A program made the translations under genes and the position numbers. Of a DNA stretch of 64,000 nucleotides, positions 1 to 64,000 are shown one piece after another (the first letter of the stretch is position 1; each line of letters opens with the position of its first letter). The notes under the pieces are model-generated. The model searched no databases and was not told where the DNA came from. It saw only the letters and a list, made by a program, of their open reading frames with translations. The DNA comes from Candidatus Nomurabacteria bacterium. GTDB lineage: Bacteria > Patescibacteriota > Patescibacteriia > HK-STAS-PATE-3. The stretch covers positions 992,001 through 1,056,000 of the forward strand of contig CP060223.1 in NCBI GenBank assembly GCA_023898465.1, written 5' to 3'.

Positions 1-330
1 CTATATAGGTATCAGAGCGCGGGATGTAGGCCTCTGGTTGGTAGTAGTCATAGTAGGACACAAAGTAGTCAACGGCGTTCTCCGGGAAAAATTCTTTAAA
101 CTCAGAAGCCAGCTGAGCGGCCAATGTTTTGTTATGCGAAATGATTAAGGTTGGTTTACCAATATTGGCAATGACATTTGCCATGGTAAAAGTTTTACCT
201 GAGCCCGTGACGCCCAGGAGGGTTTGATAATGATTACCCTTTTGCAGACCCTTGGTTAAGCCCTCGATTGCCTTGGGTTGGTCGCCGGTTGCTTGGAATG
301 GAGAGACGAGCGTAAATGGAGAAGACATAG
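1..330 (-). CDS. uvrB: Excinuclease ABC subunit B (UvrB), N-terminal fragment truncated by window edge
   Basis: Reverse-strand translation beginning at 330 reads [28 protein letters not shown]...[17 protein letters not shown]...[21 protein letters not shown], the classic UvrB N-terminus with Walker A GSGKT. Confidence 0.85.
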
Positions 331-413
331 TTTAGGTAGTGTAGCATGTCTTGACATTCATGTATGGTCCGCTATGGTTGCTGCAGTTCTTTTGAGTTTG
401 CCAAGGAGGGACT

Positions 414-776
414 ATGGCATACCGAGCACTTCGGCAGGAAACCCGAAAAAAGAGAGTTGGCTACCCGGTCATATTGAGGAAGGTGTCTCTCACGGGTCAC
501 CAGCAGCATTTCGGATGCTTGGCGACTTTTGTATGGATGTTAGCCTTTGTTTGGCTCTGTCTTTTCCTGGAGTGGTGCCTTGATCTAAAGGTTGATACAG
601 TGCTGAGTTCGACACAAGTCGCTCATCTCATGTATGAGGCCGGATTGAGGTTGATCACCCTCGCGGTGCTCATCGGCGCGTATGGCTACTTCAGTGTTCA
701 AGCAACTCGCCAAGTCCTTATCCGACGTCCCACCAGTAAGAGGCGGCCGAAGCTGACAAAGGAGGATGCTCAATGA
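414..776 (+). CDS. hypothetical small membrane protein (GC-rich ORFan)
   Basis: AGGAGG 4 nt upstream of ATG; hydrophobic segments; no recognisable family. Confidence 0.4.
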   Translation: MAYRALRQETRKKRVGYPVILRKVSLTGHQQHFGCLATFVWMLAFVWLCLFLEWCLDLKVDTVLSSTQVAHLMYEAGLRLITLAVLIGAYGYFSVQATRQVLIRRPTSKRRPKLTKEDAQ

Positions 777-997
777 GTTGGCAACAGCGCGTGGAGGTGA
801 GAGGTAATGAAGAGGTCGTGCAATCACAAGATGTGTGGCTGACACACAGGCCTGGACCAGGCGAGCAGCTCATCCTCGAGCTTCAACTCGTGAGAGGTGG
901 TCGGCAGGCATTCTCCTGCTTCGTGGATGAGGCTGCCTCGACAGAGTCACGGATGGTTTTGCGAGATTTGCAAGAGACTCGCATCTCAGTGGGCTGA
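773..997 (+). CDS. hypothetical protein, translationally coupled (ATGA overlap) to upstream ORF
   Basis: ATG overlaps stop of 414..776; GC-rich; no recognisable family. Confidence 0.3.
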   Translation: MSWQQRVEVRGNEEVVQSQDVWLTHRPGPGEQLILELQLVRGGRQAFSCFVDEAASTESRMVLRDLQETRISVG

Positions 998-1133
998 ACT
1001 TGAGGCGCAGCATGAAGAGTATTTGAGAGCAGTGTGGTACACCCCGCTGCTCTTTATCTTGACTTTCTTCCTCTTTTTTCGCACACTGTGGCTGGTTCCT
1101 TGCATTTGAATGAACAAAAGGCTGGGGGAAGAT

Positions 1134-1634
1134 ATGAGGCTAATCCAAGTAGGCGAATTGGTACTGAGCCTGCGGAGCAATTTAGGAACTTTGGTCAGTC
1201 TGAGCGATGACATTGTTCGCATGGACGACAAGGTGGACAATATGGCTCAGGACGAAAGTCAGGAGTCGACTCCGAGCCCGGAGGATGATGATGGACCAGA
1301 GGCAAGCCCGGTGATGTCCATGGAACAACTCATGGGGCAGATCGGGGAAACCTGGCAGCGGATAGGGGGAGCCGCAACTACTCTTCTCGACGAAAGAGAG
1401 AGCCCCGGCTATGGAGCCGCGTGCCACTGCATGGGCGAGATGTTGATGGGTCTTCATCAGCGCCTCGGTGGGAGGTCCCTGGATGACAGTGGCAGGGAGC
1501 TTGTTGCTGCACTGCATGAATCTTTGCAGGGAATAGGCACTGACCCTGGCAACATCTCAATGATGAGTCTCGGGCATTACAGTAGCGATTTCAGTGAGCG
1601 CTATCTTGGCTGGTGCGCGAGACAAAGGGGCTAG
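1134..1634 (+). CDS. hypothetical acidic protein (start at 1110 or 1134)
   Basis: ORF in the same GC-rich block; followed by a hairpin/T-run terminator. Confidence 0.35.
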   Translation: MRLIQVGELVLSLRSNLGTLVSLSDDIVRMDDKVDNMAQDESQESTPSPEDDDGPEASPVMSMEQLMGQIGETWQRIGGAATTLLDERESPGYGAACHCMGEMLMGLHQRLGGRSLDDSGRELVAALHESLQGIGTDPGNISMMSLGHYSSDFSERYLGWCARQRG

Positions 1635-1659
1635 CCAGGATTACTCGGAGGGTTACGCA

Positions 1660-1692
1660 CAGCGCTTTGTCGATTGATAGAGCGCTGTTTTC
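1660..1692 (+). terminator. intrinsic terminator (CAGCGCT...AGCGCTG + TTTT)
   Basis: 7 bp GC stem followed by T-run immediately after ORF 1134..1634. Confidence 0.5.
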
Positions 1693-1736
1693 TTGCTTAG
1701 TAGCCGAAAGAGATAAACCTACGCTATACTCCAAAC

Positions 1737-61698: not shown

Positions 61699-61773
61699 GG
61701 CGTGGTAGCCAAGTGGTAAGGCAGGGGTCTGCAAAACCCCTATTCGCGGGTTCGATTCCCGCCCACGCCTCCA
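61699..61773 (+). tRNA. tRNA-Cys (anticodon GCA)
   Basis: Acceptor GGCGTGG/CCACGCC, anticodon loop CTGCAAA, T-arm GGTTCGATTCC, CCA. Confidence 0.85.
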
Positions 61774-61788
61774 GAAGTAAATTTACAT

Positions 61789-61865
61789 GCGGGTGTAGTT
61801 CAGTTGGCTAGAACGTCTCCTTGCCAAGGAGAAGGTCGGCGGTTCGAATCCGCTCACCCGCTCCA
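61789..61865 (+). tRNA. tRNA-Gly (anticodon GCC)
   Basis: Acceptor GCGGGTG/CACCCGC, anticodon stem TCTCC/GGAGA with loop TTGCCAA, T-arm GGTTCGAATCC, CCA. Confidence 0.85.
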
Positions 61866-61937
61866 CGGGCCATCACTTACTGCGGGCTCCGTGAAGACAA
61901 ATACATTGTCCTCACTGCGCCCTTCGCAAGGATGTCC

Positions 61938-61975
61938 CTTTACGCCTCAGACTTAACCCTGCGGGCCCAAGTCTT
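61938..61975 (+). repeat. copy B of about 38 nt tRNA-downstream motif (...AGACTTAACCCTGCGGGCCCAAGTCTT)
   Basis: Aligns with 45067..45104; contains the AGACTT/AAGTCT inverted repeat. Confidence 0.6.
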
Positions 61976-62113
61976 CGGCGTTTGAGCAGAGAAAGAGCTT
62001 AATTTCATATCCTGTTGGCGGACCACTTCGACCCCTTGTGCATTGAAGAAACCTTTTTGTTTTTTTGATGTGCGTTTGTTATAGTAAAAAAGTCTCAATT
62101 AATATCAATGTAA

Positions 62114-63145
62114 ATGCATAATCAACGTGGTTTCTCGCTCATCCCTGCGCTCTTTGTACTGATTGCAGTTGGTTTAGGTATTAGCGTGGGATATGCCCTG
62201 TGGGCTAATTATCAAAATAGCAAAACAACCAATAGTGTGAAAGTAAATAACGTAGCCTGTACCGAGGAGGTCAAACTCTGCCCCGACGGCTCCTACGTTG
62301 GTCGCACTGGGCCGGATTGTGAATTTGCGGAGTGTTCAGCAGCGAACACAAACATTAACAGTAGTGATGATTCCTCAGAAGATGAGTATCTTCAAATTAC
62401 TGAATGGGGTGTTGAACTACCTATTACTGAAGGAGTTGAGTATACTTATGTAGCAGATTCAGGCCGCGCTTCTTTTTCAACAATTGGACTTGAGGACCAT
62501 GATTACTGCGGGTCAAGTGATGATGGTATTGGAATAATTTCTCGATACACCTCGCCTATTCCCGAAGGCCCTCTTAGGTTTCAGGACCCGATCCAAATTA
62601 ATGATTGGTATTATTACTATACCAGGCCGCAATCAGCTTGTTCGCCTAATGCCACAATAGTTGAAATGCAAACCTTGGCCAGCACAGCACTTGAAGAGAG
62701 TTTTGCAGGATTACGTGAGAGTGTAGATGAATGGCAGACATATACGAATGCGGAGCTTGGAATAGAATTTGAAATTAGGGCTACCGATAATACTTATTAT
62801 TATAGTCAATCCGATGCCCACTATATTGATCTTTATCCTACTGGCGAGGATGATCACTACGCTTATGTTAGAATTGGTTCAATCGCAGACCAGGACGCAA
62901 TAGTTAATGATGAAGTTGTATCAATTAACGGCCACGAACCGGTTTCTGAAGGTGTGCTAAGTGGACAACCAGCGAATATCTTTTTATTTAGGCCAGCATG
63001 CGATGATGGTCCAGGCTGTGGGCCGTACAATATGGGATACGCATTAGTTCATAACGATACTATGTTTAGCCTTTGGTTTGTTGGTGATGACCAGTTAAAT
63101 GACGTAGAGAGGCACATCCTTTCTACATTTGAATTTACTGAATAA
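62114..63145 (+). CDS. type IV pilin-like / pseudopilin-like protein (N-terminal prepilin-type hydrophobic segment)
   Basis: MHNQRGFSLIPALFVLIAVGLGI resembles a class-III signal peptide; conserved Cys-rich block VACTEEVKLCPDGSYVGRTGPDCEFAECS. Confidence 0.5.
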   Translation: MHNQRGFSLIPALFVLIAVGLGISVGYALWANYQNSKTTNSVKVNNVACTEEVKLCPDGSYVGRTGPDCEFAECSAANTNINSSDDSSEDEYLQITEWGVELPITEGVEYTYVADSGRASFSTIGLEDHDYCGSSDDGIGIISRYTSPIPEGPLRFQDPIQINDWYYYYTRPQSACSPNATIVEMQTLASTALEESFAGLRESVDEWQTYTNAELGIEFEIRATDNTYYYSQSDAHYIDLYPTGEDDHYAYVRIGSIADQDAIVNDEVVSINGHEPVSEGVLSGQPANIFLFRPACDDGPGCGPYNMGYALVHNDTMFSLWFVGDDQLNDVERHILSTFEFTE

Positions 63146-63156
63146 ATAGCACAAAT

Positions 63157-64000
63157 ATGATAAATAAAGGCATCACTTGGCTTCCCATCCTCTTCATCTT
63201 CGCCGCACTTGGTGTTGGTTCATTTATCGTGTACATTGGCTGGCAAGTTGCAACGCAGACGCAGGAAGTAGCTAATGTAAATAATGACGTGGCCTGCACT
63301 TTAGAGGCCAAACTCTGCCCCGATGGTTCCTACGTAGGTCGCACCGGACTGAATTGTGAGTTTGCGGAGTGTTCTGAGGAGGTAACTTGCGGTACTATCG
63401 CCGGTCTAGAGTGTCCAAGCGGATATAAATGTGAATATGATAATCCAGAAATTGCTGACGCTGCCGGGACGTGTGTTTTAGATACAGAAACCAGCACTGA
63501 AGAAGATTATTCCAATTGGTCTCGATCAATGAATTGGCGGGAATATAGCTATCGTTATACTACAAAAGAATTTATACATACTACACAGGATGCTGGAGAA
63601 GAGATAATTACAACTCCATTTAATGCGTCTGAATACACCGGGACAGTTACCTGGAATGGTGCGCTTTTCTGGAGAACAGGTCCGAGTGCAACAACCTATA
63701 TTCCTGATATCTCAAGCGACTTTGAATATGAGGCAGGCGTAGATCCAGATTTTTGGTTTTATGACTATGCGTCTGAACAGTTTATCCATCTTCCAAAAGT
63801 TGACTACCTAGATGGTACGGAACTATTTGAAAGTACGGTACAAGTTTTTCCATCTCTCAATGAACCTAAACTACTTCTTGAAGTAGGAAAATTTGATATA
63901 CAAAGTGAAGAGTTTATTCCCGGTTTCAGCAGTCCCATGCCGGTATCAACACGGGGCTTGGTGTATAACTTTGCTAAGAATACTTTTGAAGACGCAGTCG
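63157..64000 (+). CDS. paralogous pilin-like protein, 3' end truncated by window edge
   Basis: MINKGITWLPILFIFAALGVGSFIVYIG..., shares the block VACTLEAKLCPDGSYVGRTGLNCEFAECS with the upstream gene. Confidence 0.45.
   Translation, partial: MINKGITWLPILFIFAALGVGSFIVYIGWQVATQTQEVANVNNDVACTLEAKLCPDGSYVGRTGLNCEFAECSEEVTCGTIAGLECPSGYKCEYDNPEIADAAGTCVLDTETSTEEDYSNWSRSMNWREYSYRYTTKEFIHTTQDAGEEIITTPFNASEYTGTVTWNGALFWRTGPSATTYIPDISSDFEYEAGVDPDFWFYDYASEQFIHLPKVDYLDGTELFESTVQVFPSLNEPKLLLEVGKFDIQSEEFIPGFSSPMPVSTRGLVYNFAKNTFEDAV

Follow-up and report, generated by a model that had tools for sequence, protein, structure and literature searches.

A compositionally distinct, Shine-Dalgarno-led class of gene cassettes in a Patescibacteria genome: a candidate long-resident accessory pool

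Bacteria of the candidate phyla radiation (CPR) have tiny genomes, and it is poorly understood in which ways they acquire accessory functions and bring them to expression. The question is raised in concrete terms by a stretch of 64,000 nucleotides, hereafter the window (contig CP060223.1 of assembly GCA_023898465.1, forward-strand positions 992,001 to 1,056,000), taken from a closed 1.08-Mb Patescibacteria (CPR) genome bearing the NCBI label Candidatus Nomurabacteria, where about 20 mostly small, GC-rich genes led by Shine-Dalgarno (SD) sites are found in about 15 short units among conserved backbone genes. In a first-pass annotation made from the letters alone, these units, here called cassettes (unnamed genes carry the letter c and a window coordinate), had been viewed as parts of a composition mosaic, for which two origins were offered, namely horizontal acquisition or a chimeric assembly. 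What sets these genes apart from their surroundings, how long have they been in place, and by which route might they have come?

In the first instance, the composition contrast itself had to be put on a firm footing. The window has 48.3% GC overall; the 12 segments singled out as GC-rich range from 50.8 to 62.0% and pool at 54.1%, against 46.7% for the rest of the window with rRNA excluded. Since same-sized random sets of segments average 48.1% +/- 1.0 and never pass 51.6%, the contrast is real, although the 56-58% first ascribed to the segments and the roughly 50% ascribed to the backbone were both too high. At the level of genes, the Pfam-annotated core (n = 30) has a mean GC of 47.6% and a mean GC content at third codon positions (GC3) of 0.463, and the cassette genes (n = 16) 55.2% and 0.599, respectively. 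The dinucleotide distance delta* between core and cassettes amounts to 0.126, that of size-matched core subsets from the remaining core to 0.029 +/- 0.008 (maximum 0.062), and the difference is thus independent of base composition. Between two halves of the cassette set, delta* is 0.045, equal to the sampling noise of the core (0.048), and the signature is common to the three enzymes encoded by cassettes and to the orphan genes (ORFans); as such, the cassettes are one coherent compositional class. Their third positions are richer in G and C, with G-ending codons especially favoured, and when scored with a codon model built from the core genes, most cassette open reading frames (ORFs) still come out best in their annotated frame, at lower scores. 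Within the core, GC3 is lowest in poorly expressed genes and highest in those for ribosomal proteins and EF-P; because the low-expression core genes are the most AT-rich, a loosened codon selection under a mutation bias towards GC was ruled out as the source of the contrast.

This difference in composition goes along with a difference in the signals for translation start. For this comparison, 63 genes were curated, several starts being corrected with the help of independent gene calls (46911 for the MTAP-like gene, 51264 for a secreted protein with a type IX secretion system [T9SS]-like tail, and 29713 for a methyltransferase), and an SD site was called where a GGAGG-type motif stands 3-10 nt before the start. 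The 22 genes bearing such a site have a mean GC of 54.0% and a GC3 of 0.582, against 47.5% and 0.460 for the 41 without (Mann-Whitney p = 5e-7), and a GC of at least 51.5% is reached by 17 of the former and two of the latter (Fisher odds ratio 66, p = 3.6e-9). The test is not circular, since the signal used for grouping lies outside the coding sequence. Conversely, an SD site precedes 20 of the 22 cassette ORFs and only two of the 41 other genes, so that four exceptions are left, namely recA and the gene of a REP-associated tyrosine transposase (RAYT), with an SD site and low GC, and c1134 and c57599, GC-rich and devoid of a clear SD site. The strong AGGAGG-type sites that the first-pass annotation had noticed at nearly all GC-rich segments are therefore borne out, and more sharply than claimed: in the window, composition tracks the mode of translation start.

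What that annotation did not contain is the other half of the picture, i.e., an SD-poor and leaderless-looking core, which makes an oddity of composition a two-class expression architecture. In ruvA, orf7206, the methyltransferase gene, rluA, lgt, orf58525 and orf61140, an extended -10 element, TGCTAYACT, ends exactly 6 bases ahead of the ATG. More generally, of the 24 operon-first genes without an SD site, 11 have a TANNNT whose end lies 5-10 nt upstream of the start, where shuffled sequences give 4.1 +/- 1.8 (P = 0.0015); in eight of these 11 the spacing is exactly 6 nt, and the layout occurs in none of 19 cassette genes. In the core gene ruvA (1737-2309, + strand), for instance, TATACT stands 6 bases before the ATG and no SD site is present, and the same layout recurs at 7206, 26886, 29713 and 31617 as well as, on the - strand, at 44818, 58875 and 61568. 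From such spacing, the first genes of core operons would be transcribed without a leader; likewise, judging from their upstream motifs, the cassette genes would rely on pairing between SD and anti-SD sequences.

Respective to their anatomy, cassettes were said to end nearly always in a terminator of their own, made of a GC hairpin and a T-run, and scans do find a strong site of this kind after c1134, c4301, c6921, c16963, c35262, c39715 and the MTAP-like gene; the hairpins that follow the genes of the stand-alone PurH N-terminal domain (PurH-N) and of the T9SS-tail protein were recognised directly in the letters. Where a promoter can be recognised, the implied 5' untranslated regions (5'UTRs) measure 29-53 nt, c4301 standing out with about 115 nt. 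The boundaries of the cassettes coincide with terminator/promoter junctions and not with random points. One such junction motif, TTCTTGAC, had been proposed as a recurrent -35 box: four exact intergenic copies of TTCTTGACW do exist, at 4732, 5470, 35011 and 52030, with a fifth inside the 23S gene, but the copy reported near 4150 has one mismatch and the motif is not enriched, 30 occurrences being found where 35 are expected at a tolerance of one mismatch. It arises because the T-tract of a terminator runs into the -35 hexamer TTGACA, and the sibling species described below reads TTTTATTGACA at one of these sites; being unenriched, so explained and unconserved, it was rejected as a special recombination or junction site.

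Whether the cassettes interrupt an older gene order was considered on Logan and NCBI contigs located via protein look-ups, as close relatives are absent among the GTDB species representatives (the best Mur ligase match being 47% and the best RpoB match 81%); those GTDB loci that carry an informative label belong to Patescibacteria lineages. A contig of GCA_964637345.1 (L093; FolD 54% identical) has Lgt-SHMT-FolD-NUDIX-YchF-RluA-methyltransferase-S6-SSB as one uninterrupted series, with 2 bp between FolD and NUDIX and 1.1 kb between YchF and RluA. Compared with it, the window has c41011 and c41632 between FolD and NUDIX, c39715 and a core-like four-gene operon between NUDIX and YchF, and 3.8 kb of RAYT and cassettes, including the block at 32.4-35.5 kb, between YchF and RluA. 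Several cassettes are thus insertions relative to a conserved backbone. The same relative displays the leaderless layout, as TACACT-N6-ATG, and its homologue of the PNP/MTAP-like gene (34% identity) is SD-led and, at 61% GC, GC-richer than its own backbone.

The pattern recurs elsewhere in the clade. On L090 (Mur ligase 57%, N-terminus of RpoB 90% identical), a Prs gene, whose protein is 53% identical, stands upstream of the block of orf7206 homologue, Mur ligase and rpoB as it does in the window, within a GC-rich island where four of four genes are SD-led and the neighbours are other than in the window. On L087, genes like c41011 and c41632 lie together in another context, both SD-led and reaching GC3 values of 0.68 and 0.86, while the neighbours without SD range over 0.43-0.60. 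The hairpin GCAGTC-CGAC-GACTGC that precedes the SD site of c41632, a small secreted peptide, in the window (41590-41631 region) is conserved there too (about 8890-8917), though the upstream protein is only 45% identical; it may be a regulatory 5'UTR hairpin. The c39715 homologues of L086 and L096, which lie in other genomic contexts, are SD-led too and exceed all their neighbours in GC, and a neighbouring gene on L096 has TGCTATACT-N6-ATG. Taken over L087, L090, L093 and L096, eight of nine SD-led genes exceed the local median GC3 of genes without SD, by 0.115 on average (hand-computed).

The age of the cassettes can be gauged from a sibling population in SRR17818317 (contigs L085, L091 and L092; FolD 88% identical, nucleotide identity 86-92%), in which c41011, c41632, the PurH-N, Prs and T9SS-tail genes and the start of c52100 are all found in syntenic position, with ratios of non-synonymous to synonymous divergence (dN/dS) of 0.04-0.30 and a synonymous divergence (dS) of 0.23-0.74. 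On L085, c41011, c41632, FolD and SHMT are collinear and ungapped at 86.5% identity, with dN/dS of 0.07, 0.30, 0.08 and 0.02, respectively. L091 covers the cassette of PurH-N (protein 94% identical, dN/dS 0.12) and the first part of Prs, and L092 the 5S gene, the T9SS-tail gene (protein 93% identical, dN/dS 0.14) and the first part of c52100, whose promoter, SD site and N-terminus are conserved. Altogether, the sibling keeps promoters, terminators and five of five comparable SD sites. Such conservation in place speaks against a recent arrival, and the first-pass annotation had itself named it, along with uniform coverage, as an observation that would count against one.

The explanation ranked first, to which we assign a probability of roughly 0.5, is that the cassettes form a long-resident accessory pool that has been exchanged horizontally. 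It builds on two observed classes of genes. Class I is the conserved backbone, of about 47.5% GC and essentially without SD sites, with operon-first genes that would be leaderless and internal genes that abut or overlap. Class II consists of autonomous expression cassettes set between backbone operons, each with a sigma-70-type promoter, often overlapping the T-tract of the preceding terminator, a 5'UTR (about 30-115 nt) in which a near-consensus AGGAGG stands 5-9 nt ahead of the start codon, one or two ORFs and an intrinsic terminator; at 51-62% GC, a GC3 of about 0.58-0.60 and one shared dinucleotide signature, it encodes small secreted, membrane or uncharacterised proteins along with Prs, the PurH-N domain and an MTAP/PNP-like enzyme. 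Exchange would take place chiefly between related Patescibacteria, with an occasional contribution from other phyla, and the units would have been inserted between backbone operons before the sibling species split and have stayed under purifying selection since.

Of the horizontally acquired cassette pool first suggested for this DNA, the distinct signature, the insertions relative to L093 and the non-CPR homologues of Prs speak for the idea, and what has to be given up is its recency. In favour of the pool there is also turnover at fixed loci, seen in the different neighbours of Prs on L090 and in the divergent gene that takes the place of c4301 in the sibling, and the recurrence of cassette families in other genomic contexts together with their signals. 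The named top matches of Prs all come from outside the CPR (12 of 12), seven of them from Omnitrophota, a phylum that a survey of transfers into Patescibacteria lists as a recurrent donor, most transfers taking place within Patescibacteria (PMC12455944). The search for Prs homologues missed the query's own protein as well as the sibling copy, of which L091 encodes one, and absent hits there are weak evidence. The cassette signature is closest to that of two Uhrbacteria loci, L020 (0.069) and L037 (0.077), where SD-led ORFs are also densest. In a search of 1.84 billion representative proteins, four ORFans match only themselves, c4301 has one homologue, c33694 two distant ones and c41011 about 15; c39715 belongs to a large uncharacterised family, one named member of which is from Patescibacteria. 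A phage origin was considered and set aside, as only PurH-N matches a PHROG or phage purH2, the other nine proteins tested matching none and c39715 being without a phage hit.

A number of points weigh against horizontal exchange as the explanation. Neither flanking transposase ends, direct repeats, target-site duplications nor attC-like sites are found at the cassettes, and Pfam scans of the window find no integrase or recombinase, its sole transposase being the AT-rich RAYT. The matches of Prs all lie at 47-55% identity, the named top ones at 47-51%, and its affinity to non-CPR phyla is hence weak evidence; in relatives, a Prs and a PNP/MTAP-family gene are found in comparable surroundings, as vertical descent might also leave them. 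Along L085, dS is 0.51-0.74 in the cassettes and 0.47-0.81 in the adjacent core, and such similar values imply that both co-diverged vertically since the sibling split. Loss of the anti-SD has been reported for about half of Parcubacteria (PMC9297842). In a crude automated test across 52 distant CPR loci, the association of SD with GC3 is slight (+0.027, p = 0.015, sign test not significant), and the pattern is consequently regarded as a feature of this clade and not claimed to be CPR-wide. As for composition, the mean GC3 of cassettes is about 0.64 in both window and sibling, whereas two comparable core genes differ by 0.035-0.07; when window and sibling are compared at third positions, the polarity of the differences is even in cassettes (55 vs. 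57) and AT-skewed in the core (74 vs. 45, p = 0.01), a contrast that is marginal and limited to two core genes (Fisher p = 0.048). The GC3 of cassettes is thus not moving coreward, which active maintenance accounts for at least as well as the decay of a foreign signature does.

These last results are also the starting point of the explanation ranked second, namely that the cassettes are a native, lineage-specific gene class whose GC and SD initiation are maintained in place, be it by selection (for instance on mRNA stability or structure, or on how a regulon is controlled in translation) or because gene conversion is biased towards GC in accessory loci that recombine often. Besides the equal GC3 in both species and the symmetric polarity, it draws on the eight of nine SD-led homologues that exceed their own backbone across relatives of differing backbone GC, on the homogeneity of the class, on a purifying selection as strong as that on FolD, and on the rise of GC3 with expression in the core, by which local mutational drift looks AT-ward and the cassettes appear to resist it. 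A native class is nonetheless hard to reconcile with the absence of the cassettes from the otherwise syntenic backbone of L093, with an island content that differs between the window and L090, with the occurrence of the same families in unrelated contexts, and with a set made mostly of ORFans of very patchy distribution; its polarity argument is the marginal one just given, and no mechanism is known to us that links initiation mode to the GC3 of whole genes. On balance, it is rather doubtful.

A bolder proposition is that in a clade of Patescibacteria, two initiation regimes serve two gene sets, the vertically inherited core being leaderless or SD-independent and the accessory set, made of self-contained cassettes, strictly SD-dependent, with the GC offset of the latter actively kept over long evolutionary spans while the core drifts AT-ward. 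We hold this to be possible but well short of even odds. If true, SD-dependence would mark, and could jointly control, a circulating accessory pool, e.g., for host interaction and purine salvage, and the GC offset would be an actively maintained property instead of the fading scar of a transfer.

Part of the signal could be non-genic, i.e., due to chance ORFs in GC-rich spacers or to unannotated RNAs. The core-trained codon model gives poor or ambiguous scores for 16887-17105, 31002-31559, 34340-34852 and 47191-47481, gene calls on independent contigs conflict within 34.2-35.5 kb, and of the segments first listed as genes, those at 31306-31600, 47077-47580 and parts of 34207-35039 are doubtful as such. 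For the set as a whole, such an explanation is unlikely: an SD site at the right spacing before 20 ORFs is far above chance, and the larger cassettes are under purifying selection. Hidden structured RNAs were rejected separately, since no Rfam family matches the GC-rich gaps even at E <= 1 and 31340-31580 folds no better than its shuffles (z = -0.77).

Recent acquisition from GC-richer donors, with cassettes not yet drifted to host composition, would account for the distinct GC and dinucleotide signature, the many ORFans and the fact that cassettes carry their own expression signals. It could also call upon c4301, which is radically different between the siblings: at the corresponding position (L091:1-279), beside a 94%-identical PurH-N, the sibling has a gene 28% identical over 40 amino acids (aa), and nucleotide similarity on the c4301 side stops exactly at the terminator/-35 junction, window position 4730. 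From the alignment, this locus may have undergone either whole-cassette replacement or the extreme divergence of a hypervariable gene. The five cassette genes and the start of a sixth that are syntenic in the sibling at the divergences given above run counter to recency, as do Prs and the c41011/c41632 pair: the relatives that share them, at 45-53% protein identity and with synonymous sites saturated, still show the offset. For the cassettes tested, recent acquisition is largely refuted and, as a general account, distinctly improbable.

That the mosaic is an artefact of assembly or binning joining the DNA of two organisms, for which the sole support is the switch of composition at sharp boundaries, can be dismissed as very improbable, since these boundaries lie at terminator/promoter junctions and not at random, the record is a single contig (1,082,586 bp), the sibling from another run has collinear, ungapped contigs across cassette/core and rRNA/cassette junctions, and the junctions are reproduced in Logan assemblies of four runs. 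The latter comprise contigs L001 (8.4 kb, SRR12358675, window about 3.5-12 kb), L084 (8.8 kb, same run, about 36.2-45 kb) and L094 (a 20-kb contig, SRR12358676, about 23.7-36.2 kb), along with shorter contigs from SRR14234116 and SRR23493594 concordant with the layout of the window; junctions also recur on L095. For the junctions checked within these three intervals, the chimerism suspected in the first-pass annotation is excluded.

Along the window, the first cassette (348-997, + strand) has the promoter TTGACA-N16-TATGGT (351-378) and two SD-led genes, c414 (414-776), a membrane ORFan, and c773 (773-997), neither of which has a Pfam match or, among the representative proteins searched, any hit but itself. 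The ORFan c1134 follows (1056-1688, +; ORF 1134-1634, the longest ORF starting at 1110), of 55.7% GC and with its terminator at 1659-1688. The next cassettes stand head to tail on the same strand: c4301 (4148-4730, ORF 4301-4693) has a promoter TTGACT-N17-TAGTGT near 4151, a long 5'UTR, the SD site GGGAGG and a terminator at 4701-4730; the stand-alone PurH-N domain (IMP cyclohydrolase/MGS-like; 4732-5466, ORF 4811-5386) has AGGAGG and a terminator hairpin at about 5428-5466; Prs, a ribose-phosphate diphosphokinase (5470-6531, ORF 5548-6531), has TTGACT-N16-TAAGGT and AGGAGG. They are followed by a small SD-led ORF, c6921 (6910-7163, +; ORF 6921-7124, terminator 7140-7163), and, in the gap between rpoC and ftsK, by c16963 (16952-17142, +; ORF 16963-17091), a putative SD-led ORF of 42 aa and 62% GC with a terminator at 17116-17142.

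Further on, an SD-led ORF of 62 aa (30924-31225, +; ORF 30992-31180) has the promoter TTGACA-N17-TATGTT (30924-30952) and a terminator hairpin, and the small SD-led pair c32399 (32399-32623) and c32635 (32635-32892) occupies 32388-32892 (+), both members being called as genes on the independent contig L094. On the - strand, c33694 (33694-34230) codes for 170 aa with an N-terminal membrane helix behind AGGAGG. The GC-rich block that follows (34370-35488, +), with a promoter TTGACA-N16-TAAGGT near 35014 and a terminator at 35463-35488, has uncertain gene models, i.e., putative SD-led ORFs at 34381-34653, c35079 (35079-35249) and c35262 (35262-35477), and a competing membrane ORF of 73-83 aa on the other strand (34714-34965, -). 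The c39715 cassette (39627-40376, +; ORF 39715-40329) displays TTGACA-N17-TAAATT, a 53-nt 5'UTR, AGGAGG and a terminator at 40348-40376; its family has a confident AlphaFold model, for which no convincing counterpart was found in the PDB. In the NCBI annotation, c39715 and c1134 have 88 and 130 aa, where the ORFs adopted in this analysis have 204 and 166 aa, and the annotated starts look wrong; gene finders whose training set is the core overlook cassette genes or give them a wrong start.

The secreted-protein pair c41011 (41011-41544) and c41632 (41632-41847), both SD-led, spans 40999-41884 (+). The divergent MTAP/purine-nucleoside-phosphorylase-like gene (46045-46935, -; 46081-46911, 276 aa) has an SD-led corrected start and a terminator at 46075-46045. 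The secreted T9SS-tail protein (51206-52026, +; 51264-51989) likewise has an SD-led corrected start, behind the extended -10 TGCTAGGCT, and a terminator at about 52003-52026; its matches to T9SS C-terminal sorting and FlgD-Ig domains are weak and below cut-off, and T9SS is a Bacteroidota-type system, unexpected in Patescibacteria. Directly downstream, the -35 TTGACA of c52100 (52030-52420, +; ORF 52100-52420) abuts that terminator, and its SD site is GGAGGT. The last of the set, c57599 (57599-57895, -), is an ORFan of 98 aa and 59.9% GC. Regarding function, three cassettes code for enzymes of purine and ribose salvage, namely Prs, which passes the NCBIfam subfamily cut-off, PurH-N, which resembles cyanophage purH2, and the MTAP/PNP-like protein, and several of the other products are probably secreted or membrane proteins, as suggested by signal-like N-terminal segments in the translations.

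Two AT-rich genes had been contrasted with the cassettes. The RAYT gene (35522-36040, -) strongly matches the NCBIfam model (NF047646, 142 bits against a cut-off of 80), which supports the call, and has 34.3% GC; it carries an SD site, lies outside the GC-rich class and has the same place on L094. Despite its presence, no REP-like repeated palindromes were detected across the 64-kb window. The NUDIX gene is indeed AT-rich as well (41-42% GC), but its assignment to the accessory genes falls, as FolD, NUDIX and YchF are contiguous in L093 and it thus belongs to the conserved backbone. In relatives, AT-rich islands (32-44% GC) are found by large serine recombinases (L093:2247-7839 and L096:1-9284), one of them adjoining lgt, where the window has tRNA-Leu; rich in AT, they are mobile DNA of another kind within this clade, in contrast to the GC-rich cassettes.

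The backbone of the window comprises ruvA, femAB, a Mur ligase gene, rpoB, rpoC, ftsK, recA, efp, rpsR, ssb and rpsF, as well as ychF, folD, glyA, lgt and the genes of RNase J and a class Ib tRNA synthetase, together with five tRNAs and a 23S-5S pair. The rRNA operon is unlinked, with 23S-5S at 47703-51154 and no 16S gene upstream; the 23S match extends over 3087 nt for a model of 2925 positions, implying insertions of about 160 nt, and a 28-nt processing stem brackets the gene (47683-47710 and 50780-50807). Directly 3' of tRNA-Leu lies a hairpin (45003-45061; 27-nt arms, 89% complementary, 5-nt loop), for which Rfam has no family, with a terminator downstream at 45123-45143. A 794-aa ORF (21326-23710, -) matches the N- and C-domains of D-Ala-D-Ala ligase twice, in tandem, and is a fused double Ddl. 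Lastly, a 92-nt direct repeat of 83% identity (62246-62337 and 63283-63374) encodes a Cys-rich segment common to orf62114 and the next ORF, which, from about 63388, runs past the end of the window, both being paralogous secreted proteins.

If the rule holds genome- and clade-wide, the combination of SD-led and GC-rich would provide a marker of the flexible gene pool that requires nothing but the sequence, and this lineage a natural system for asking whether initiation mode partitions a genome into separately controlled sets and whether one class of genes keeps its composition against mutational drift. In the literature, no paper was found that combines leaderless initiation, Shine-Dalgarno use and Patescibacteria.

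Among known systems, the closest are the transferred genes and genomic islands that have been compiled for Patescibacteria (mSystems 2025, PMC12455944), where compositionally deviant "atypical" genes or islets likewise stand between conserved genes and consist mostly of hypothetical proteins with a few metabolic add-ons; the exchange partners fit too. Unlike these islets, the cassettes are units of one or two genes without integrase, tRNA target or flanking repeats, and they constitute one homogeneous class, stable between sibling species and set apart by its initiation signal. While atypical genes are usually AT-richer than their host (PMC6028130), the cassettes are GC-richer; this, and the clean partition of initiation mode with composition, are the unusual features of the locus. 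With integron gene cassettes, they share the short and mostly single-ORF format, the many products of unassigned function and the frequent head-to-tail arrangement, but they lack attC, integron integrase and attI, each has its own promoter and terminator, and they are scattered instead of gathered in one array. Leaderless genomes that also hold SD-led genes are known as group C of GeneMarkS-2, from Actinobacteria and Deinococcus-Thermus (PMC6028130), where, as here, a -10 box stands 6-8 nt before the start of operon-first genes and leaderless and SD-led genes coexist; in the window, which belongs to a CPR bacterium and not to one of the group members named, internal operon genes are without SD as well, and SD sites are confined to a compositionally distinct accessory class instead of being spread over leadered native genes. 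Finally, lineages poor in SD sites, i.e., Bacteroidota and the Parcubacteria devoid of anti-SD (PMC9297842), resemble the window in having an essentially SD-free core and a small minority of genes with strong SD sites, but here that minority is made of GC-rich accessory genes and not of ribosomal or autoregulated ones.

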